Source: Escherichia coli (lineage in GTDB: Bacteria > Pseudomonadota > Gammaproteobacteria > Enterobacterales > Enterobacteriaceae). Taken from it: a stretch of DNA of 64,000 nt. Each line of letters opens with the position of its first letter. Positions within the stretch are counted from its first letter, which is position 1. The notes beneath the pieces were generated by a model that made no database searches, was not told the DNA's origin, and saw only the letters and a list, made by a program, of their open reading frames with translations. The position numbers and the translations under genes are program-made. This document shows, one piece after another, positions 1,484 through 43,903 of this stretch. The stretch lies in NCBI RefSeq assembly GCF_051903065.1, contig NZ_CP178438.1; one strand, given 5' to 3'.

Positions 1484-3019
1484 TTAGTGTTTCTTGTCAT
1501 TCATCACAATATAGTGTGGTGAACGTGCACGCGGGTGCAGGAAGAAGTGACCTTTTGGTGCGTTCTGACTGTTGATTGGCTCCAGAGTGACGCCGGTATT
1601 CGCTTTGCCTTTACGATCATGAACAGCATAGAGAATAAAGGGCAGGGCAAGTACCACCAGGAAACTAACGACCAGTAATTCAACATACATATCGGTAGAG
1701 TCACCCTGGATATTATCCGGCGGCAGGAAGGAAACAATAAACGCCATAATTGAAGTCAGCAGACCGACAATAGCCACGACCAGTTTCACCCCTTTACCAC
1801 CAGGGATATTAAATGTGCGTTTTAAGTCAGGATGTTTAAGAACCAACACAATGTAGCCAATAAACAGCATGAAATAAGCACACAGATAAATCACCACCGT
1901 CAGCGCCAGTGCGATCAGGAAGGACATGTTGTTACCGCCACCGGTATTGGTGAGGATGATCAACGCGATAGAAGTAATCACCAGCTGTGAAATGACCAGC
2001 GTTACCGGTACGCCATTTTTGTTCATTTTAGCGAATGCCGCTGGCAGCAGGTTTTTCTGCGCTGTGACATACATCCCGCGAGAAGGACCAACAATCCAGG
2101 AGGCGATTTCCGCCAGAACACCCAGCAACAGCAGTGCGGAGATCACGCGAACCGTCCACTCAATTTCCGGTGCCACATGGGACATCAGAACGGTAAAGGT
2201 TTGCATTACCCCTGCGGAGAGGTTGATTTCATTACCCGGAATGACCATCGCAATAGACAAACCACCAACAGAGCTTAAGCAGATTGCCGCCACCATCAGC
2301 AGTAACATAGCCAGTGGATAGTCGCGCCCTGGGTTGCTCATTTCATTGACGTGGGTTGCGGATGCTTCTACGCCCATATAACTCAAAATGAAGGCAACAA
2401 ATACTACCAGGGTGCCCACTTTAGAGAAGTCAGGGAAGAAGGTCTTCGAATCCATTTCGATAGCAACGGGGGCACCGGAGTGCAGATAAATAGCCGCTAA
2501 TGCGATCAAAATAAATGCAGGTAACAGGATACCGGCGAAGAAGCCAACTTTAGCAATGCGCGCCGTGTATTTCGTGCCACCAAACTGCGTTAATGCCAGC
2601 GCCCAAAGAATGATGAGTGCTGCAATAGTTTTGGTAATGGGGTCTTCATTCAGCGCTGGCCATTTCAGGATGTAGGAGAGTGCCCCTAACACGAAATAGA
2701 GCATCGGAATAAAACCAATGGCGATTTGCAGATAGCCAAATGAGATCGCTGCAAATCCCCATCTCGGCCCCAGAGTATTTGATACCCAGGCGAAGACACC
2801 ACCTTCTTCCCAGCCGTCGACGGTGGCCATTTCCGCAGCACAAAGTCCCACGGGAATAAACCATAAAATCCCGCCTAATAGCAGGAAGAAGACTAATGAA
2901 AAGCCCGATGTTGCGAAGGTAGGGTATTCATAAACAGCCATTACCATCGATGCCGTTATGGCAAAAAAGCCGAGTAATGTGAGCTGCTTAGCTTTACCTG
3001 TCTGTACTGATGTAGCCAT
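1484..3019 (-). CDS. gadC: Glutamate:GABA antiporter GadC
   Basis: 511-aa polytopic membrane ORF, recognised sequence; immediately downstream of gadB. Confidence 0.95.
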
Positions 3020-11872: not shown

Positions 11873-12134
11873 TAGCGAAAATTGATTGTGCCATCCAATG
11901 ATTATCTATGGCAATGATTTACTGATGAAATTTATTTAAGTATCATTTAACAATATGAAATATATAGAAATTTTTAATTTTCAGTGGTTATGGTTATGCT
12001 ATTGATAATCAAGGATATTGCTAATGCCCTGACGCATACCACGTATGCCAGGATTTTCGCAAGGGAAGATGATGATGACGAAACACCCAACAGGAATTTA
12101 TGTCGGGTGTCTTGTTAAGGCCATAAGAAGGAGG

Positions 12135-13110: not shown

Positions 13111-13872
13111 TCAAATAGCTAAAGCATTCATCGTGTTGCCCGTATTCATACCCATGTGACTTTGACAACGGTACTCCTTAGAAACTCTCTTCGGACTGTT
13201 GCCGAAATGTTTGCGGAACGCATAAATAAAATAAGATGTACTGGCATAACCACATTGTTCGGCAATTTTATTGACTGAACCTTCTACGCGTATCAAATTT
13301 TTTGCGTGCTGCATTCTGGCATCTAATAGAATCTGTGAGAATGTCGTTTGCTCTTGCTTTAGTTTTTTCTTCAACAGGCTTTCACTGATGTACAGGCAGT
13401 CACAAATATCTTTCAGCTTCCATGGGTGCGCCAGCTTCATGTTGACAATATTTCTCACTTTCCCGGAAACGGATAGCACACCGTTAGTTAATAGTGTAAT
13501 GAAACCTTTGCATGCGGCAAATATAGACAGGCAAGAAAAAAGCAAAAGTTCTGAAAAATTATGATGATTGCGTTCTTCCGAGTTGAGATAAGCAATCATT
13601 TCATTAAGCAATCCAGTCGGTACATTTGAAGCACGTAAAAACTTCGCAGGAACAGGCACCGTCACTGTCTGGATGTTAGTGCATTGTAGATATTTTTTAA
13701 TGGTATTTTCATTAAATCCGATTTCTTTAAAATGCCGCTCATAAGGTTCAAAATGTGTACGAACAGCGTTATCTACCATCAGGATCTCGCCGTCAGAGAA
13801 GGCGTAATCTTTATCTAAAATGTTAGCGTTGAAAGCATGATGAATAAATATAACAGAACAAACGAGCGACAT
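13111..13872 (-). CDS. ydeO: AraC-family acid-resistance regulator YdeO
   Basis: 253 aa; C-terminal AraC HTH; position after safA. Confidence 0.9.
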   Translation of the reverse strand: MSLVCSVIFIHHAFNANILDKDYAFSDGEILMVDNAVRTHFEPYERHFKEIGFNENTIKKYLQCTNIQTVTVPVPAKFLRASNVPTGLLNEMIAYLNSEERNHHNFSELLLFSCLSIFAACKGFITLLTNGVLSVSGKVRNIVNMKLAHPWKLKDICDCLYISESLLKKKLKQEQTTFSQILLDARMQHAKNLIRVEGSVNKIAEQCGYASTSYFIYAFRKHFGNSPKRVSKEYRCQSHMGMNTGNTMNALAI

Positions 13873-13945: not shown

Positions 13946-14143
13946 TCAGTCTTGCAAACTATTGATAATGAAATGTGTAAGATCTCTTGCAATGCGACCC
14001 ATTTCTGAAATACCCAGCTGATCAATTGCCGAAAAAATGGCTATCAACGTAAGTGTCAGTAATAAGACAACCACAATTACAGACATGATTTCTTTATAGT
14101 TGTCTCTTTGTGTGATTTTATTTTTCACTGTGGTCGCATGCAT
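13946..14143 (-). CDS. safA: Two-component connector SafA (small membrane protein)
   Basis: 65-aa ORF with single TM segment, recognised sequence. Confidence 0.85.
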   Translation of the reverse strand: MHATTVKNKITQRDNYKEIMSVIVVVLLLTLTLIAIFSAIDQLGISEMGRIARDLTHFIINSLQD

Positions 14144-14255
14144 TTCAAATATGTTTATTTAGCGGATAACGTTAAAAATCGTTAATCAGTATGCTTAATA
14201 TAACAGGCTGGAAAAAAGAGGAAATAGGACTGGTGCTTCAGTACTGAGCGGAGTT

Positions 14256-14273
14256 TCTTACAGCTGTAGGCAG
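14256..14273. promoter_or_regulatory. EvgA box upstream of safA-ydeO
   Basis: TTCTTACAgcTGTAGGCA matches the 18-bp EvgA inverted-repeat consensus TTCYTACA-N2-TGTARGAA with one mismatch. Confidence 0.6.
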
Positions 14274-14390: not shown

Positions 14391-14554
14391 TTAATTTGAT
14401 GGTTCTAATTCAACCGGAATACTTTTATAGCCAGGAATGCCACTTAATGGATCGTGGTTATCAAGTGTTAGCATGTGATTCGATTCTGGAAAATAGGTCA
14501 CCAGTGAGCGGTCAGCCATAGGGTAAATGACCACTTTTAATCTATCCATGCGGC
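14391..14554 (-). pseudogene. ydeP: ydeP 3' remnant (last 51 codons plus stop) separated from the gene body by IS1
   Basis: Hand translation of the minus-strand frame continuing across the TSD gives [55 protein letters not shown]; 708 + 51 = 759 aa, the expected YdeP length. Confidence 0.75.
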
Positions 14555-14609
14555 GGTGATGCTGCCAACTTACTGATTTAGTGTATGATGGTGTTTTTGA
14601 GGTGCTCCA

Positions 14610-14885
14610 GTGGCTTCTGTTTCTATCAGCTGTCCCTCCTGTTCAGCTACTGACGGGGTGGTGCGTAACGGCAAAAGCACCGCCGGACATCAGCGCTATC
14701 TCTGCTCTCACTGCCGTAAAACATGGCAACTGCAGTTCACTTACACCGCTTCTCAACCCGGTACGCACCAGAAAATCATTGATATGGCCATGAATGGCGT
14801 TGGATGCCGGGCAACAGCCCGCATTATGGGCGTTGGCCTCAACACGATTTTACGTCACTTAAAAAACTCAGGCCGCAGTCGGTAA
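14610..14885 (+). CDS. insA: IS1 InsA
   Basis: 91-aa [26 protein letters not shown]..., zinc-finger CxxC...CxxC. Confidence 0.95.
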
Positions 14886-15307
14886 CCTCGCGCATACAGC
14901 CGGGCAGTGACGTCATCGTCTGCGCGGAAATGGACGAACAGTGGGGCTATGTCGGGGCTAAATCGCGCCAGCGCTGGCTGTTTTACGCGTATGACAGGCT
15001 CCGGAAGACGGTTGTTGCGCACGTATTCGGTGAACGCACTATGGCGACGCTGGGGCGTCTTATGAGCCTGCTGTCACCCTTTGACGTGGTGATATGGATG
15101 ACGGATGGCTGGCCGCTGTATGAATCCCGCCTGAAGGGAAAGCTGCACGTAATCAGCAAGCGATATACGCAGCGAATTGAGCGGCATAACCTGAATCTGA
15201 GGCAGCACCTGGCACGGCTGGGACGGAAGTCGCTGTCGTTCTCAAAATCGGTGGAGCTGCATGACAAAGTCATCGGGCATTATCTGAACATAAAACACTA
15301 TCAATAA
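14804..15307 (+). CDS. insB: IS1 InsB (expressed as InsAB' by -1 frameshift)
   Basis: 167-aa ORF overlapping insA in the -1 frame. Confidence 0.9.
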
Positions 15308-15322
15308 GTTGGAGTCATTACC

Positions 15323-17447
15323 CCATGCGGCGTGAGCTGCGCTTACCGTCTGGCGTAAGCGCAATAAGATTAACTCTTTCGCCGTTTTTTACACGGCAAA
15401 TTTTAGCTTGTTTAGCACTCATAAAGACCACATCTCGTTGACCGAATACCCCTCGATAGCGATCATCCATACCATAAATCGTCGTGTTGTACTGATCGTG
15501 GCTGCGTACTGTCGCCATGACCAGCTTACTGTTAAACGCTGAAGAGGGATCTTCTAACAGCCCTTTGCTGGTAATGAAATTAGCCTTACCTGACGGCGTC
15601 ATCCAGCGCCTTTCAGCAGCTGCATTTATCAGGTGAAAACCACCGGGATGACGGATGCGCTGGTTATAGTCGGCGAACTCTGGCAGCACAGCTTCAATGT
15701 CGTTGCGAATGCGATCATAATCTTCCACCAGATACTCCCAGGCTACCACGCTCTGGGGTAGTGCTGCCTGTGCGATTCCCGCGACCACTGCACACTCTGA
15801 TTTCAGCATTACACCGGCGGGTTTTAACACGCCACGCGAGGCATGAATCATCGACATTGAATCCTCAACGGTTACCGCCTGCGCACCGCTTTTTTGCATG
15901 TCAATCTCGCTACGTCCCAGAACCGGCAGAATATAGCTATGCCGTGCGGTCAGCAGATGAGAGCGGTTAAGCTTAGTGGCTACGTGTACCGCCAGATCTA
16001 ATTGCGTTAACGGTACAGCGCTCGCTTCCCGATCTGGCATTGCCAGTGCAAAGTTGCCCCCCATGCAGATCAATGCTCGAGCCTGCCCTGTACATATTGC
16101 TTGCATGCTGGCAATTGCAGCATGTCCAGGTGCTTGAGGTGGTGTGAAGCCATAGCGCTCACCCAGGCGAGCCAGAAACTCTGCAGACGGTTTCTCGGTG
16201 ATACCGACGGTTCGGTCGCCCTGTACATTAGAGTGGCCACGTAGTGGGCAGATACCCGCACCAGGCTTGCCAATGTTACCTTTCATCAACAGCAGATTGA
16301 CCAGTTGCTGTACATTCTGGGTACCATGTTCGTGCTGAGTGATCCCCATTCCGTAACAGATAATGGTTCGTTCGGCAGCGGCATATGCATCAGCCAGTTC
16401 GGCGATTTGTGTCTGACTTAGTCCAGAAATACGTTCGATATCTTTCCACTCGGAATTGAGCACGTCACGGCGTAGCTCGTCAAAGCCGACGGTATGCGTT
16501 TGAATAAATTCGTCATCCAGCAATGAGGGCCGACCTGCGGCGCTTGCAGCATCATCGCGCTCAATTAACAGGCGCATCATCCCCTTGAGCAACGCCATAT
16601 CACCACCAATGCGCACGTTATAGTAGGCACTGGCCAACTGAGTCTCAGAGTTCGTCAGCATTTCAAACGGGTTTTGCGGTGCGGTAAATCGCTCCAGGCC
16701 ACGTTCCTGTAGAGGATTGATGGCGATCATTTTCGCTCCCCGTTTCACTAAAGCGCGCAACGAAGTCAGCATGCGAGGGTGGTTTGTACCAGGGTTATGC
16801 CCAATGCAAATGACTAAATCGCACTTCTCAAAGTCTTCCAGCAACACGGTCCCTTTACCTACACCGATACTCGCTGCCAAACCCACGCTTGTCGGTTCAT
16901 GGCACATGTTGGAGCAGTCGGGAAAGTTATTGCTCCCGTATTCACGGGCAAAAAGCTGATAAAGAAAGGCAGCCTCATTGGAAGTGCGGCCCGAAGTATA
17001 GAATTCAACCTGATTGGGATCACTATAGCTTTGAAGGCGTGCGCCAATTTCATCGAAAGCTTGTTGCCAGCTTAATGGCTTGTAACAGTCGCTGACGGCA
17101 TCATATTTCAAAGGCTGAGTGAGTCGCCCCGCAGCCTCAAGCTCGTGGTCTCCCCAGGTAAGTAATGATTGAACCGTATTCTCAGCAAAGAAAGAGGCGT
17201 TTACCTGCTTATCCGTGACTTCCCAGGCGATTGCTTTTGCGCCGTTTTCACAAATGTCGAATGACGCACTGTGCTTAGGATCTGGCCATGCACAACCCGG
17301 ACAGTCAAAGCCCTCTGGCTTATTCATGTCAAACATGGCAATAACATCCTGGCGTATATCCATCTGCTTACGTACTGCATTCGCTACGGATTTAACAGCA
17401 CCCCAACCACCGGCAGCTCCCTGGTAGGATTCAATTTTTTTCTTCAT
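15323..17447 (-). pseudogene. ydeP: ydeP (molybdopterin oxidoreductase, acid resistance) 5' part, truncated by IS1
   Basis: ORF 15318-17447 encodes the first 708 residues of YdeP and then terminates on a stop codon supplied by the IS1 end. Confidence 0.85.
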
Positions 17448-17690
17448 CTACTTATCCTGTGTGGAAATGAATTATTAGGATTTGTAATAGCGATGATGCA
17501 CAGTACATACAAAGGGATTATCGCCAACATGGATATATAAGAGTAGGGGACTACTCTCTTTCTATTTTTAATCTATTATCGTTAAACAATAGATTAAATA
17601 CGATAAGGTAAGCATCATCTCTCATAGTGTTTAAATTAACATATTTTTTAATATAAAAAATAAGACTCTGGCTTCAATTGTGCGCGGATT

Positions 17691-17710
17691 TTCTTACAGG
17701 TGTAGGATAA
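17691..17710. promoter_or_regulatory. EvgA box upstream of ydeP
   Basis: TTCTTACAggTGTAGGAT(AA) matches the EvgA consensus; about 245 bp upstream of the ydeP start. Confidence 0.6.
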
Positions 17711-17780
17711 TAGCCTTCACAAAATAATTATCCGCGCAATTTTCGTGAATGGAGCGCATAGACCAATGTCAAAATCACAA

Positions 17781-18695
17781 TTATTCATAGATAAAAGTGA
17801 CACCAATGACTGACTGGACGGTTCCGGCTGAAACCTTGTTTCCTGTTTGTCCATAGGTTGCGCTTAAACCCAGAGGTACTTTGCTTTTATTTACTGTCCC
17901 CAGGGAGACATTTTCTCCCGTAGCCAGTATTTTTCCATTACGCATCAGAGAGACACCCACTCCCGATGCTTTTGTTGCATCTGGTGCTGTGTTAGCAAAC
18001 ACTTGTCTAGCACTGTCAGTGGTAGCACCCGAAAGATAAAATGAGAGCTTTTGTTCACTTGAGCAATATACGCCAAGGGGGATTTCTGCGCTTCCAGGAA
18101 AGTCCGGGAGATTCACGGTGACATTACGACTATCAACAGTGCAGCCGCCTGTTGGCATAACAACACTGTTATTTGAAATAATATTCCACGTAAAATTACG
18201 CGGATTTCCGCTTCCTAACGTGGCAATTTTATACATATGAATACGGGCAATAACTTCCCCGGCTTTTATGACAACTCCACCGGCCGCCCCGACTGGGGTA
18301 ATATAGAGTTTTAACGGTAATGGCATCGGTGTCTTATCACCAATATCCAATACGTTTGTATTTGTCGTCAACGGGAAGGGGTAGGTCACATTATTCCAGT
18401 ACAGCGATCCTTTATATGACTGTAGAGAGCCTGCGAAAGCTGAGCCTTGTACCAGGTTTATATGATCAGTGTCGTACCAGCCGCCGTAATCATTCCAGCA
18501 ACTTATATGCTGAGACAAGTCTACAACCAGATTCTGGCCCGGCTGTATTACAGGGTCGAGATTAACATAAACAGAGGTTGTACCAGCTCCAATACTTGAC
18601 CCGCCATCGACATTACAACTGAAGGCAAAAACTTTGCCTGCCATTAATAGAAGATAAATACCGAACAGGACCTTTATACTGATTGTTTTACCCAT
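17781..18695 (-). CDS. ydeQ: Fimbrial tip adhesin, FimH-like (YdeQ/FmlH-type)
   Basis: 304-aa ORF with signal peptide; last gene of the chaperone-usher operon. Confidence 0.8.
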
Positions 18696-18754
18696 GATAT
18701 ATCCTAAGGTTAAAAAATTGATTTAAAAAGAAGGCTAAGAAAATCGAATCGACG

Positions 18755-19258
18755 TTATTGCCAGGTGTAGATCACATTGATTAGCGCCTCGATCGTTCCC
18801 TGGCTTGCATTTCCATTCACCGTGATAGCTCTTGCCTTAAGTGGAAACTGTGCATTACGAGTGATCTCATCAACAATAACCGTTTTGCTATCGCCATTTT
18901 TTAACGTCGCATCCTGGTCATCCCTCAGCTCTATCTGAATATTTTCGGCAGTACCTTCATTTTTGTAATAACCCGTATTGTCAGTTGAACCTGTCACGAT
19001 TGCCGTCACTGCACTTGTTTCAGCCGGACAATCGGTTAATGACAAAGTAATATTGTGCCAGCTAGATGCAGAACCAGGTTGTTGCAGATTGCGCGTATAA
19101 AGATCCCCGAGATTAACGTTAGCTTCTTTGGTTTGAATAGTGCAGGGTTTAGCGACTACCCGACCATTAACAGTGATAGTGACATCGGCGGCCTGGAGAG
19201 TTGCTGTGAATAACGCGCAAAACGTAGCTAACAGGAACCTCTTGTGAAGTCTTTTCAT
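18755..19258 (-). CDS. ydeR: Fimbrial minor subunit
   Basis: 167 aa, signal peptide, pilin-like. Confidence 0.8.
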   Translation of the reverse strand: MKRLHKRFLLATFCALFTATLQAADVTITVNGRVVAKPCTIQTKEANVNLGDLYTRNLQQPGSASSWHNITLSLTDCPAETSAVTAIVTGSTDNTGYYKNEGTAENIQIELRDDQDATLKNGDSKTVIVDEITRNAQFPLKARAITVNGNASQGTIEALINVIYTWQ

Positions 19259-19270
19259 ATCTGACTCTGA

Positions 19271-19801
19271 TTATTGAAATTCAAGGGTAAAGGTTGCCGA
19301 AGCCCTCACCAGTCCCGGATTGACGGACTTCTGAGTTGACTTCAGACGAGCGGAGTAAGGCAAAATATTGTTCTGTTCTGGTACCAGTGGGATCCACTGC
19401 ATCCCGGCATGAAGGTCATTCAGTTTCACCGGACGCATATTTCCGTCCAGTATTTCTATACCTAAACCGGAGGCCGTATTGCTTCCCTCATCCAGTTTCA
19501 ACAGAGTATTATTTTCTGCATCCTCAATACCGTTAAATGCAACCCGAACCCCCGTTGTCCCTTTGCTGCATTCACTTAACGTAATCTGAAAAGGGACGGC
19601 TGGACTTGTGCTACCGGTCGTTGGAAATTGTCTGGCACTGTTTTTTTGGAGATCTACGGTAAAATTAAGCGAATCCGATGAGACTGTGCAGCCATAATCG
19701 AGGACGCGCCCGCTAATTTTAATAACGCTATCTGCGGATAAAGCAGAATAGGTGGTTAACCCCAGACATAAACCGAGGAAAATAACGTTATTGTATTTCA
19801 T
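19271..19801 (-). CDS. ydeS: Fimbrial minor subunit
   Basis: 176 aa, signal peptide, pilin-like. Confidence 0.8.
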   Translation of the reverse strand: MKYNNVIFLGLCLGLTTYSALSADSVIKISGRVLDYGCTVSSDSLNFTVDLQKNSARQFPTTGSTSPAVPFQITLSECSKGTTGVRVAFNGIEDAENNTLLKLDEGSNTASGLGIEILDGNMRPVKLNDLHAGMQWIPLVPEQNNILPYSARLKSTQKSVNPGLVRASATFTLEFQ

Positions 19802-19814
19802 AATCTCTTGTTCC

Positions 19815-22466
19815 TTAGCGACAGATTGCTGTCTGCTGGTTCAGTAAGGTTCCAGGAGAGACTTCCGGAAGCTTGTACTCGACAATACAGTTTGAGTTTT
19901 TATCATTGCCCCATGAAACCTGTAATTTCCCTGACTGTGGAAGTCCAGTCAGATAAACCTGACCGTTTTCTGCGACAATGCTGCCATTTTTATTCTCTCC
20001 GTGTGTGACAATTGCACCGAATGGAACGCTCTTATTACCGTACTTCAACGTCATTAATACTTTTCCGCCGATTTGTGCATTAAATGTTGCTCTGGCAATA
20101 GCACCGTGAGTTGGGATGACAGTGACCACGGTTTCATCCAGTTCAACATTATCTGCAAGAGAATTCGCGTTAAGAGCGACACGATTTTCTCTATATTCTG
20201 TCGCAAATGGTAATATGGCATAGCCACGCCAGTCGGTATGAATTCCGGTCTGGTTCTCTATTTTGACATTATCAGCGCCAGGAGCCTTAACCAGAACCAT
20301 TGTGTCGCCCAGCGGCTGTCCAAAGGTGATGCCATCAGCATGAGCAATAATCCCACCACTCATTCCGTAATAAATCTGGCTGCTGTCACCACTCCGACTG
20401 TAACCGACATTAGTATTACCGTAAGCTCCACGATAATTAAGAGAACTGTAACCACTGGTGCCAGACGATGTATTACCTCCGTGGGTGTTACCGACCTGAA
20501 CGCTATAATTCAGGTTATTATCCGGCAGCAGAGTGCCATAAACCCCCGATAGATTGGTCATGCCGCCTTTCAAATCGTTTGACATACTGTAACTGGCGTT
20601 TGAATTACGAAATGCCGACTGACTGTCTGTACGCATCCAATGACTGAAGGGAACATTAAGCGTAAAAGCGAGTAAATGATCCCGATCGTTTTGCCATATA
20701 TTATTGGAATAGCTGTAATTCAGCGAAGTCGTAATATCACCAAACGGCACATTTAATCCAAATGATATTTGCTGGTCGCTGCGTGACGTGTTCCAGTAAC
20801 TTTGGCGACTGGCACTGAAAAATGTCGTACCGTAATTTCCAAGCTGCTGAGAGATGCTTATTTGTTCCTGACCACGCTTACTGTAGAACAGATTAAAATA
20901 ATCAATAAATTGTGTCTGCTCATTGCTGTCTCCGGTAGGAGGCTTGACGGTGTAACCACTCATTCGACTGTAGGCACTGTCGGATAAGTTATAAAAACCT
21001 TGCGTAGAATAGCGATATCCTGCGACCTGGATATTGGTTCCTGTCTGGTAGAAGGATTTGCTGTAGACGGATTTAACCGATTGCCCGCTGTGACGGGTGC
21101 CATCTGCAAGTGTCGTATTGGCCTGCGTGATATCGAAAGAAAAGGCACCAAAAAGTCCTAAATCTTTACCAATACCAAGGTTGAAGGCCTGATAATCTTC
21201 TGCAATTTGCATTCCGCCATAAGGTGTCCAGTTTCCTTCCAGTCCATGCATCAAGCTACCTTGTATGAACCTGGGGGAGCTTTGCAGGTTATTTCCACTA
21301 CGATATTCCCCCATGGCAAGCGCATAACGCGTATATCCAGCACGTTGGAGAACCGGAACAGACGAATAAGGAACATATAATGTCTGAATACTGCCGTCTG
21401 CCTCTTTTATGGTTACTTGCAGATCACCACCATTGGCCGCAGAGTTGATATCATCAATAGTAAAAGGGCCGGGTGGAACAGTAGTCTGATAAACATCGTA
21501 TCCGTTCTGTTTTACACTCACTTGTGCGGTGCCACGGGCAATACCATGAATCACCGGAGCGAAACCATGTTGGCTATCGGGCAACATCGCTTCTGTTGAA
21601 TTTATTTTGAGGCCACGAAAGTTCACACTATCAAAAATATCGCCATCGGTATAACTATCACCTACCGTTAACCGTGAGCGTAAGGGAATAATGTCACGTT
21701 CAGCCGACGTATTGATATGCTGCCATTTATTGCTGTCAGATGAATTGCTACTCCCACTGTTATAACTCCACGTTGAGTTATCGCGCAGTCGCCAACTACC
21801 AATGTTGATGCCACTCTGTAAATTCAAATATGCATAGTTTGATTTTCCTGCATTATGGTTACTACGATTATTAATAGAATTACCATTAAAACTATAGTTT
21901 AGAAGCCCTGCATTTATTCCTTCTTCCCACAGATCAGGAGAAACATAGCCGCGAGCCATTCTGCCAACATAAATTTGCGGAACGGAGAGTGACAGATGTT
22001 GCTGACCAACATCAAACTCAGTTGATGCGTCGACCAAACGATCCTGAAGTGGTGTGCATGCGCTGTTGTCCGGCACATGTTTTTCTGCTGAATGTTCCTT
22101 ATTGTCTAATAACGCAGATTTTTTTATGCCAAGACTGACAAGAAGATCTGTACTCAGGCATGGGATGAGATCTGCATTATTATCATCTGCAATAAAAGTA
22201 ATATCCCGACTAGTCATAAATTCGTCGTTCAAATAAATGTCGACCCGATATGTACCAGGTGGTGCCTCGCGTCCCTTAGTAAAGGCGGATAAATCGACAG
22301 ATTCAGCAAGATCATTGCTTAAAAATCGTGGATTAAAATAATACTCTGCGTAAACGGGAAATACCGCAGTTGCTAAGCCAAGGGCAATCGTAAGCCGTGC
22401 AAAGCGAGGCAGTAGTAACACCTGATGCATACGATATGCCTTAAATGCGGCACGAAAGGCTGTCAT
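19815..22466 (-). CDS. ydeT: Fimbrial usher (FimD-like), full length
   Basis: 883-aa ORF with usher N-terminal, barrel and C-terminal domains; a pseudogene fragment in K-12 (memory) but a single intact ORF here. The true start may be the internal MHQVLLL. Confidence 0.8.
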   Translation of the reverse strand: MTAFRAAFKAYRMHQVLLLPRFARLTIALGLATAVFPVYAEYYFNPRFLSNDLAESVDLSAFTKGREAPPGTYRVDIYLNDEFMTSRDITFIADDNNADLIPCLSTDLLVSLGIKKSALLDNKEHSAEKHVPDNSACTPLQDRLVDASTEFDVGQQHLSLSVPQIYVGRMARGYVSPDLWEEGINAGLLNYSFNGNSINNRSNHNAGKSNYAYLNLQSGINIGSWRLRDNSTWSYNSGSSNSSDSNKWQHINTSAERDIIPLRSRLTVGDSYTDGDIFDSVNFRGLKINSTEAMLPDSQHGFAPVIHGIARGTAQVSVKQNGYDVYQTTVPPGPFTIDDINSAANGGDLQVTIKEADGSIQTLYVPYSSVPVLQRAGYTRYALAMGEYRSGNNLQSSPRFIQGSLMHGLEGNWTPYGGMQIAEDYQAFNLGIGKDLGLFGAFSFDITQANTTLADGTRHSGQSVKSVYSKSFYQTGTNIQVAGYRYSTQGFYNLSDSAYSRMSGYTVKPPTGDSNEQTQFIDYFNLFYSKRGQEQISISQQLGNYGTTFFSASRQSYWNTSRSDQQISFGLNVPFGDITTSLNYSYSNNIWQNDRDHLLAFTLNVPFSHWMRTDSQSAFRNSNASYSMSNDLKGGMTNLSGVYGTLLPDNNLNYSVQVGNTHGGNTSSGTSGYSSLNYRGAYGNTNVGYSRSGDSSQIYYGMSGGIIAHADGITFGQPLGDTMVLVKAPGADNVKIENQTGIHTDWRGYAILPFATEYRENRVALNANSLADNVELDETVVTVIPTHGAIARATFNAQIGGKVLMTLKYGNKSVPFGAIVTHGENKNGSIVAENGQVYLTGLPQSGKLQVSWGNDKNSNCIVEYKLPEVSPGTLLNQQTAICR

Positions 22467-22507
22467 TATTAATTCCGATTGAGTTTATTATTAATTAGGT
22501 CACTGGC

Positions 22508-41809: not shown

Positions 41810-42100
41810 ATGCACGTCACACTGGTTGAAATTAACGTTCATGAAGACAAGGTTGACGAGTTTATCGAAGTTTTTCGCCAGAACCACCTGGGCTCGGTAC
41901 AGGAAGAAGGCAATTTGCGCTTCGATGTCTTACAGGACCCGGAAGTGAATTCGCGCTTTTATATCTACGAAGCCTATAAAGATGAAGACGCAGTGGCGTT
42001 CCATAAAACCACGCCCCACTACAAAACCTGTGTCGCGAAACTGGAATCTTTAATGACCGGGCCGCGTAAAAAACGTCTGTTCAATGGGTTGATGCCGTGA
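41810..42100 (+). CDS. lsrG: LsrG (phospho-AI-2 isomerase, ABM monooxygenase fold)
   Basis: ORF from 41774, but the protein matches LsrG from [14 protein letters not shown] (96 aa). Confidence 0.9.
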
Positions 42101-42585
42101 GGCGAATTTATCCGGTGCGCCGTAAAACCCCGTCCTTCAGGGCGGGGATATAAGGCGCGGTTTTCCACCTGACCAGGTGTTTGCTGTTGTTCAATGTATT
42201 GGCGGATGACGGATATTGGCGCACCTCCGCAGCTACTGGCAAAATAGCCAGGACTCCACAAAACGCCTTTGTAGTAATACCTGACTGCAATATCTGGTCG
42301 ATCTCGTCGCAGTAACCTACCTGATACGCTTTTGAGGCTGTTTACCAGACTGGATATCGCCAGTTTGGGAGGATAGTTAATTAACAAATGGACGTGATCT
42401 GGTTCGCCATCCATTTCAACCAGTTCAGCTTCAAAATCAGCACATACATTTGAAAAGTAAGTGCGTAGTTTTTCTGTCGCGTCATGGTCAAAAATCTGGC
42501 GTCGGTATCTGGTGACAAAGACCATGTGAACATGCTTCAGGAAAACACAATGCCTTCCACGCCGGATATCTGTTTCTTTTTTCAC
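42019..42585 (-). CDS. tnpA: IS200/IS605 TnpA (Y1 HUH tyrosine transposase); conserved core about 42180-42585
   Basis: HUH motif DHVHLL and catalytic-Tyr region [15 protein letters not shown]; the ORF lacks a stop at the expected point and continues antisense into lsrG. Confidence 0.7.
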
Positions 42586-43903
42586 AGACCAAAATATAAT
42601 TTGACCTGTGAAACGACTACAGGCATTTAAATTCCAGTTAAGACCCGGTGGTCAACAGGAGCGTGAAATGAGGCGCTTCGCAGGCGCATGTCGTTTCGTT
42701 TTCAATCGTGCTCTGGCACGTCAGAATGAGAATCATGAGGCCGGTAATAAATACATCCCTTACGGGAAAATGGCTTCCTGGCTGGTTGAGTGGAAAAATG
42801 CCACTGAAACGCAATGGCTTAAAGATGCCCCGTCACAGCCATTGCAACAGTCACTGAAAGACCTTGAGTGGGCTTACAAAAACTTCTTCCAGAAGCGGGC
42901 TGCTTTTCCCCGATTCAAAAAGCGGGGACAGAATGATGCATTCCGCTACCCGCAGGGCGTTAAGCTCGATCAGGAAAACAGCCGTATTTTTCTGCCGAAA
43001 CTGGGCTGGATGCGCTACCGGAATAGCCGTCAGGTCACGGGTGTTGTGAAAAATGTCACGGTCAGCCAGTCCTGCGGTAAGTGGCACATCAGTATTCAGA
43101 CAGAAAGTGAAGTATCAACTCCGGTTCACCCTTCAGCATCAATGATCGGGCTGGATGCTGGCGTGGCTAAACTCGCCACGCTGTCAGATGGCACAGTCTT
43201 TGACCCTGTAAACAGTTTTCAGAAAAACCAGAAGAAGCTGGCGAGACTTCAGCGACAGTTCAGCCGCAAGGTCAAATTCAGCAACAACTGGCAGAAGCAG
43301 AAACGCAAAATACAGCGACTGCATTCCCGTATCGCAAATATCCGCAGGGACTACCTTCACAAAGTCACAACGACCGTCAGCAAAAACCACGCAATGATAG
43401 TCATTGAGGATTTGAAGGTCAGCAACATGTCAAAGTCAGCAGCGGGTACGGTCAGCCAGCCGGGGCGCAATGTCCGGGCAAAATCAGGTTTAAACCGTTC
43501 GATACTGGATCAGGGCTGGTATGAAATGCGTCGCCAGCTTGAGTACAAGCAGCTCTGGTGTGGCGGTCAGGTGCTTGCTGTTCCGCCAGCGTACACAAGC
43601 CAGCGTTGCGCGTGCTGTGGTCATACAGCGAAAGAAAATCGCGTGTCACAAAGTAAATTCAGATGCCAGGTATGTGGATATACAGCGAACGCCGATGTAA
43701 ACGGCGCTCGTAACATTTTAGCGGCGGGGCACGCCGTTCTTGCCTGTGGAGGGATGGTGCAGTCAGGCCGCCCGTTGAAGCAGGAACCCACCGAAATGAT
43801 TCAGGCGACAGCCTGAACGTAGCAGGATCCTCGTCATTCAGGGCGTGGAGGATGTCAACAGTTTTATCTACAATTGGGGTAACGCGCTGACGGGAGTAAA
43901 AAA
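42101..43903. mobile_element. IS200/IS605-family insertion element (divergent tnpA and tnpB); ends approximate
   Basis: Y1/HUH transposase and TnpB encoded back to back, filling the interval between the lsrG stop and the tam start codon. Confidence 0.6.
42608..43816 (+). CDS. tnpB: TnpB (IS605 OrfB family, RuvC-like RNA-guided endonuclease)
   Basis: 402 aa; RuvC-I IGLDAGV, RuvC-II IVIEDL, Ruv[14 protein letters not shown], and zinc finger CACCGH...CQVCG. Confidence 0.8.

Follow-up and report, generated by a model that had tools for sequence, protein, structure and literature searches.

An IS1 insertion truncates the acid resistance gene ydeP in an Escherichia coli strain related to ECNB21-M121

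In Shigella and in host-restricted Escherichia coli, the expansion of IS1 inactivates non-essential chromosomal genes. IS1 is a 768-bp element that carries imperfect inverted repeats and the overlapping insA and insB genes, encodes the frameshifted InsAB' protein and generates an 8- or 9-bp duplication of its target (PMC12428005). Classical cases of insertional inactivation by IS1 are lacY::IS1 and mglA::IS1 in strain RR1/HB101 (PMC5379014). Here, we describe an IS1 insertion in ydeP, whose product plays a role in EvgS-dependent acid resistance that is redundant with YdeO/GadE (PMC4283999). The insertion is located in a 64,000-nt stretch of E. coli DNA (contig NZ_CP178438.1, assembly GCF_051903065.1), which was analyzed as a whole and is referred to as the window. 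No report of IS1 within ydeP was found in the literature searched, where the sole match is an IS5 element between ydeP and ydeQ in RR1.

The element in ydeP agrees with the IS1 family in length, ends, reading frames and target duplication (Table 1). It starts with GGTGATGCTGCCAACTTACTGAT and ends with ATCAATAAGTTGGAGTCATTACC, and 18 of the 23 outermost positions at its ends are complementary, forming imperfect terminal inverted repeats. Slippage by -1 at the A6C motif yields an InsAB' protein of 232 aa without an internal stop, which scores 245 bits (cut-off 100) against the NCBIfam model NF033558 transpos_IS1 and covers the model completely (1-199/199). Moreover, the element is 100% identical to a copy in NZ_CP083585.1 (36842-37609 in L001) that is annotated as 'IS1-like element IS1A family transposase'. 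Both reading frames and both ends are intact, and the copy may be competent for transposition.

Table 1. Positions of the features at the interrupted ydeP locus, numbered from the first nucleotide of the window
Feature	Position	Strand	Remarks
ydeO	13111..13872	-	253 aa, intact
safA	13946..14143	-	intact, 65 aa; lies downstream of the insertion; L001 annotation is colinear
EvgA-box-like inverted repeat upstream of safA-ydeO	14255..14272	+	intact; 283 nt from the IS1 left end
Orphaned ydeP 3' fragment	14391..14549	-	Met708, last 51 codons and stop; 52-aa ORF
Target-site duplication, left copy	14546..14554		CCATGCGGC; 9 bp
IS1, IS1A-type	14555..15322	+	768 nt exactly
IS1 left inverted repeat (IRL)	14555..14577	+	
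insA	14610..14885	+	91 aa, open
insB reading frame	14804..15307	+	167 aa, open; overlaps insA
A6C programmed -1 frameshift motif of IS1	14861..14867	+	
IS1 right inverted repeat (IRR)	15300..15322	+	read on the - strand: GG of ydeP codon 709, then TAA (15320-15318)
Target-site duplication, right copy	15323..15331		CCATGCGGC; 9 bp
Truncated ydeP ORF	15318..17447	-	708 native codons, Gly709, TAA in IS1; 709 aa
EvgA-box-like inverted repeat upstream of ydeP	17691..17708	+	TTCTTACAGGTGTAGGAT; 1 mismatch to the search consensus
Junction strings at the ydeP tail			GCATCACCGCCGCATGGATAG, TCATTACCCGCCGCATGGATAG

The 9-mer that flanks IS1 on both sides has one further copy in the 64 kb, at 63587, and two given 9-mers match by chance with a probability of about 4e-6. 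Read literally, the repeat extends over 10/10 nt, as the target is followed by a G (15332) that is identical to the G at the start of IS1; when the canonical end of IS1 is taken as the boundary, 9 bp are duplicated. The empty site was rebuilt in silico by deletion of IS1 and one copy of the 9-mer. The resulting 624-nt sequence with a single 9-mer occurs exactly in E. coli ECNB21-M121 (L001), an ordinary isolate from meat, and a 114-nt string across the empty junction occurs exactly in the Logan assemblies L007 and L009. Both IS1 flanks align to these three sequences without mismatch. Could an assembler have put a collapsed or misplaced IS1 copy into ydeP? IS1 is a multicopy element with a median of 11 places per E. 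coli genome, and the window itself contains a second copy 17.4 kb away. However, such an artefact is highly improbable, given that the perfect duplication lies precisely at the canonical IS1 ends, that the two copies differ by one base and were therefore resolved separately, and that the GCA_036912935.1 assembly exhibits an identical right junction and a fitting contig extent.

The second IS1 copy also raises the possibility of a larger rearrangement, such as a composite IS1-16.6 kb-IS1 transposon, an inversion or a recombination between the IS1 copies. The two copies are in direct orientation and bracket positions 15323-31958, and copy 2 lacks a target duplication. The comparison with ECNB21-M121 nevertheless makes a rearrangement very unlikely. 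The whole window is colinear with this genome at 99.9-100% identity with four structural differences, and the colinearity holds between the IS1 copies as well as on both sides of them. Furthermore, CCATGCGGC flanks copy 1 alone, and the outer flanks of the pair are unlike (CCATGCGGC versus AACCGCTTA). Copy 2 carries the AACCGCTTA duplication in L001 and is without it in the window because of an adjacent 213-nt deletion relative to L001. A composite transposon of the two copies was rejected in view of the colinearity and the non-matching outer flanks.

The interrupted gene lies on the - strand in the context ydeO-safA-ydeP-ydeQ, with its ORFs colinear with those annotated in L001. Its first part, from 17447 to 15323, comprises 708 codons and one additional nt, and the gene continues at 14554. 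When rebuilt across the empty site, the ORF encodes 759 aa and matches the NCBIfam model NF007406 ('acid resistance putative oxidoreductase YdeP') from end to end (1-759/759) with 1833.8 bits (cut-off 1473) and TIGR01701 with 1200.8 bits. The truncated ORF accounts for NF007406 positions 1-708/759, and the 3' fragment accounts for positions 708-759/759. The original prediction had described a 768-bp IS1 with intact insA and insB, flanked by identical 9-mers and placed by simple transposition in a gene for a 759-aa YdeP, with 708 codons upstream and 51 codons downstream of IS1. Each of these points agrees with our data, namely the coordinates and sequence of the 9-mers, the length, open frames and InsAB' model match of the element, the exact empty site in ECNB21-M121, L007 and L009, and the end-to-end match of the reconstructed frame to NF007406. 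The proposed comparison with uninterrupted ydeP likewise yielded intact alleles with identical flanks (L001, L007 and L009). The predicted product without the C-terminal 51 residues is also correct, but its fusion to IS1-encoded residues is not: a single Gly, whose GGG codon takes base 1 from the duplication and bases 2-3 from IS1, is followed directly by TAA in a 709-aa product.

The truncation falls within the C-terminal molybdopterin-dinucleotide-binding domain of YdeP (Pfam Molydop_binding, PF01568), which spans residues 642-751 of the rebuilt protein. The cut at residue 708 deletes roughly model positions 67-110, or ~40% of the domain, and the present ydeP, which ends at 708 plus Gly, does not encode an intact copy of it. 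Scored on its own, the 52-aa tail reaches 58 bits with the FdhF/YdeP subfamily model, which indicates that the lost segment is conserved, and it aligns with the extreme C-terminus of 9wxb_B, an alpha subunit of formate dehydrogenase with a solved structure. YdeP is thus likely to have lost its function, as judged from the removal of ~40% of the Molydop_binding domain, and the locus is a disrupted ydeP that most likely is no longer a functional member of the FdhF/YdeP family. An insertion that is neutral or leaky, with the 709-aa protein remaining active as a C-terminal variant rather than a knock-out, is a less favored reading to which we assign a small but appreciable probability. The protein keeps 93% of YdeP, including the entire PF00384 catalytic region, and reaches 1708.9 bits against NF007406, which is above the YdeP cut-off, so that sequence scoring alone fails to flag the 709-aa YdeP as defective. 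However, a leaky insertion is disfavored by the loss of ~40% of the binding domain, by the conservation of the tail, whose 51 residues score 58 bits, across the FdhF/YdeP subfamily and by its alignment to the C-terminus of solved formate dehydrogenase alpha subunits.

What happens to the regulation of the neighboring acid resistance genes? The window contains only two EvgA-box-like sites, one upstream of ydeP and one upstream of safA, and both are located outside IS1. The consensus used for the search is reportedly that of Masuda and Church from 2003, and 0.69 matches with ≤3 mismatches are expected by chance. The EvgA-controlled ydeP promoter of the original prediction is plausible, based on the box-like site upstream of the gene and on the direct EvgA regulation described for the ydeP promoter (PMC7174508). 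EvgA also binds a promoter of safA-ydeO itself (PMC9496106), and the safA-ydeO branch should therefore be unaffected by the insertion. This point bears on a potential regulatory gain, in which an outward -35 element (TTGGCA) of the IS1 left end would pair with TAGATT of the ydeP tail to form a hybrid promoter toward safA-ydeO, or in which IS1 polarity would remove read-through from ydeP into safA-ydeO. The hybrid element is a 9/12 promoter-like match on the - strand (14568-14539), and an operon organization of ydeP-safA-ydeO is described in one paper (PMC11052181). However, promoter-like matches occur in the region at chance level (4 found, 3.1 expected), and safA-ydeO has its own EvgA-bound promoter with an intact box-like site, which renders a regulatory effect improbable.

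The insertion is recent, since both ydeP fragments outside IS1 are 100% identical to intact alleles and have not decayed since the event. Its position relative to another change can also be ordered. A nearby ydeM-ydeN deletion is common to 23 contigs, and L007, which stands for 19 similar places in the deletion lineage, retains a 759-aa ydeP. Because this lineage mostly keeps the intact gene, IS1 entered ydeP later than the deletion occurred. Only one other recorded contig, JATALX010000057.1 of the draft assembly GCA_036912935.1, encodes precisely the 709-aa product. Over the 5,235 nt compared, this contig does not differ from the window, including 110 nt of IS1 at the right junction, and with a length of 16,854 nt it agrees with the interval that separates the two IS1 copies in the window. 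GCA_036912935.1 may represent an independent isolate or the same strain.

The allele is rare as well. When 5,426 complete E. coli genomes were queried with IS1-in-ydeP in both orientations, none of them exhibited IS1 at the 14555 ydeP site in either orientation. Query coverage of ≥80% was reached in twelve genomes, eight of which were retrieved; for H5 and H6 (row-identical to H4), H50 (row-identical to H49) and H46, the position of IS1 was taken from the match spans and the features listed. None of the twelve has this allele because IS1 is found at other positions in all of them. The element is intergenic in CEA106S, PK-F-10122, ETEC4090, EC556, IR53017 and SFE8. In strain 20409 (NZ_CM190155.1), ydeP is split by a simple IS1 insertion 1,320 nt from its 3' end, and in TUM2830 (NZ_CP135685.1), IS1 truncates ydeP 546 nt from the 3' end, with the rest of ydeP through hipA deleted. 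In a scan of JGI metagenomes, the left junction gave no match in either orientation.

A look-up with the orphaned 52-aa tail ORF, which can detect disruptions within 32 codons before Met708, identified IS1 next to the same ydeP tail in other backgrounds. Three Logan contigs, L014, L015 and L016 (SRR23037575, ERR15395529 and SRR29657867), start inside the IS1 right end and continue with CGCCGCATGGATAG. Their IS1 is opposite in orientation to that of the window, and their ydeP flank starts 1 nt earlier, with one junction seen in each contig. This opposite-orientation IS1 at the ydeP tail is new here. The flanks of the three contigs differ mutually by 37-66 positions per 1.8 kb, from 48-60 nt off the junction, and their genetic backgrounds differ by 2-3.7%. 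Given that the flanks differ and that the IS1 end in L014 is a sequence variant, the three junctions represent independent events and not one imported segment. Four IS1 events within 1 nt are far from a uniform distribution over the 32 codons covered by the look-up. These observations, with one junction for each of the L014-L016 events, suggest an IS1 hot spot at ydeP codons 706-709.

Codons 706-709 could even be more than a passive target. At least four independent hits by IS1 in unrelated E. coli, of both orientations and no more than 1 nt apart, would then reflect selection, under certain conditions, for a truncated YdeP or for altered safA-ydeO expression, or an unrecognised determinant of IS1 targeting. 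We regard this extension as doubtful. An IHF site was rejected as the cause of the hot spot, given that the nearest match to the IHF consensus has 1 mismatch and lies 85 nt from the target and that the window-wide count is at chance level (87 found, 75.5 expected). A resemblance of the target to the IS1 ends was also discarded, as the local score of 13 was attained by 214/500 shuffles. Six further contigs (L026-L031) that start 1-2 nt before Met708 contain no IS sequence and were not counted as additional junctions; they are best read as chance contig ends from the exact-product look-up. The 52-aa ORF is present in 89 index blocks, a number that does not measure insertion frequency because the look-up also selects chance contig ends of this kind. 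The look-up also revealed two changes of other kinds: in AP026479.1, an ISEcp1-like element is located 40 nt upstream, and in AIFY01000030.1, the shortening of A6 to A5 causes a frameshift.

Based on the observed structure, empty site, recency, rarity and domain truncation, we propose, with high confidence in the explanation as a whole, an IS1 knock-out of ydeP in an ECNB21-M121-related strain that retains the safA-ydeO branch. A single IS1 of the IS1A type transposed into the chromosomal ydeP of an E. coli close to ECNB21-M121, antisense to the gene. A staggered cut over ydeP codons 706-709 and its subsequent repair generated the 9-bp duplication. The EvgA-dependent ydeP transcript would now contain an ORF that encodes 709 aa (708 native residues and Gly) and stops three bases inside the right end of IS1. 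Without its last 51 residues, YdeP would most probably misfold or be unable to hold its cofactor, and ydeP would be, in effect, a fresh pseudogene. Downstream, safA-ydeO would keep its own EvgA-box promoter, and the EvgA-YdeO-GadE branch of acid resistance should persist, such that the lost part would be only the partly redundant branch that depends on YdeP. The event itself is a real, recent and strain-specific IS1 insertion of a routine kind.

The loss of enzyme function and the resulting phenotype are what we infer from this structure. The strain probably loses the YdeP branch of EvgAS-dependent acid resistance while the YdeO/GadE branch stays, and its survival at extreme acid pH could be slightly lower, which is relevant only to the phenotyping of this lineage. 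The phenotype of ydeP::IS1 may be slight, given that deletion of ydeP alone left unchanged the resistance that a constitutive evgS allele confers (PMC4283999). In addition, the 709-aa product could be annotated as an intact ydeP because it passes the cut-off of the YdeP model. The interval with hipBA and the operon for fimbriae would be liable to deletion, since the two IS1 copies are in direct orientation at a distance of 17.4 kb. Finally, the recurrent IS1 hits at the same nucleotide provide a small, testable case of IS1 target preference.

Compared with the known systems, ydeP::IS1 resembles lacY::IS1 and mglA::IS1 of RR1/HB101 in the element family, the 768-bp structure, the simple insertion, the 8-9 bp duplication and the truncation of the target, and differs from them in the target gene and the position. 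In contrast to the IS burst of the Shigella type, of which there is no sign here, the window has only two IS1 copies in 64 kb. Strains 20409, TUM2830, CEA106S, PK-F-10122, ETEC4090 and IR53017 likewise contain IS1 in the ydeN-ydeO-safA-ydeP neighborhood, but at positions other than that of the window. In L014-L016, IS1 abuts the same ydeP tail, which it faces with its right end, whereas the left end faces the tail in the window. The hot spot is the sole mildly unusual element of an otherwise ordinary knock-out.

The 3' end of ydeP appears to be an IS1 insertion hot spot. IS1 adjoins the same ydeP tail, in the opposite orientation to the copy in the window, in three Logan contigs whose genetic backgrounds show 2-3.7% divergence. 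In these contigs, the ydeP flank begins 1 nt earlier than at the window junction. At least four independent IS1 events, including that of the window, have thereby occurred within 1 nt at the ydeP tail. At the ydeP target, neither an IHF site nor similarity to the IS1 ends accounts for the clustering. In other strains, ydeP is further disrupted just 5' of Met708, the start of the orphaned tail ORF, by an ISEcp1-like element that encodes a 420-aa IS1380-type transposase and ends in ...ACGTGGAATTTAGG, or by a frameshift.

Features at the ydeP tail and the second IS1 copy of the window
Feature	Location	Remarks
IS1/ydeP-tail junction	L014 (SRR23037575) 1-35	equivalent to window 14546-14555
IS1/ydeP-tail junction	L015 (ERR15395529) 1-35	equivalent to window 14546-14555
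IS1/ydeP-tail junction	L016 (SRR29657867) 1-33	equivalent to window 14546-14555
ISEcp1-like element	L012 (AP026479.1) 2880-3000	40 nt upstream of Met708
A6-to-A5 frameshift in ydeP	L013 (AIFY01000030.1) 2880-3013	product of 710 aa
Second IS1	window 31959-32726	orientation as ydeP copy; within autotransporter pseudogene

Against the YdeP equivalog model, whose cut-off is 1473 bits, the truncated 709-aa YdeP (window 15318-17447) still reaches 1708.9 bits, and this product is entered as an ordinary gene in a public collection. This ydeP pseudogene could escape score-based naming.

Relative to the closely related strain ECNB21-M121, 2,347 nt are deleted at window 12189/12190, with the loss of ydeM and most of ydeN and with neither obvious microhomology nor an IS at the junction. 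The remaining 190-aa YdeN stub is common to 23 public contigs, and ydeP is intact in one stub-bearing contig (L007) that represents 19 similar places. Between yddA and ydeM, the window contains a clean empty site with one TCATTTAAC (11943-11951); ECNB21-M121 carries another IS1 at this site, with a 9-bp duplication of TCATTTAAC. By colinearity with ECNB21-M121, an IS200/IS605-type remnant lies between lsrG and tam (window 42019-43816) and consists of a TnpB/InsQ gene (402 aa) beside a truncated tnpA.

The second IS1 copy is located 17,404 nt downstream of the ydeP copy. A T in place of G at position 32516 is its only difference from the ydeP copy and converts Trp103 of InsB to Cys within the TDGWPLY stretch. 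The second copy is flanked by the duplication AACCGCTTA in ECNB21-M121 and lacks a target duplication in the window because 213 nt on its left side are missing relative to ECNB21-M121. Furthermore, a 1-nt deletion at window 30909 relative to ECNB21-M121 splits the autotransporter gene, already disrupted by IS1, into two ORFs (26915-30910 and 30877-31947) and is additional pseudogene decay.

The direct IS1 pair (window 14555-32726) encloses 16.6 kb that contain the 5' part of ydeP, the ydeQRS fimbrial operon with its usher and chaperone, hipBA and the autotransporter remnant. Should the two copies undergo homologous recombination, this entire interval would be lost. In E. coli TUM2830, a deletion extends from ydeP to hipA with an adjoining IS1.
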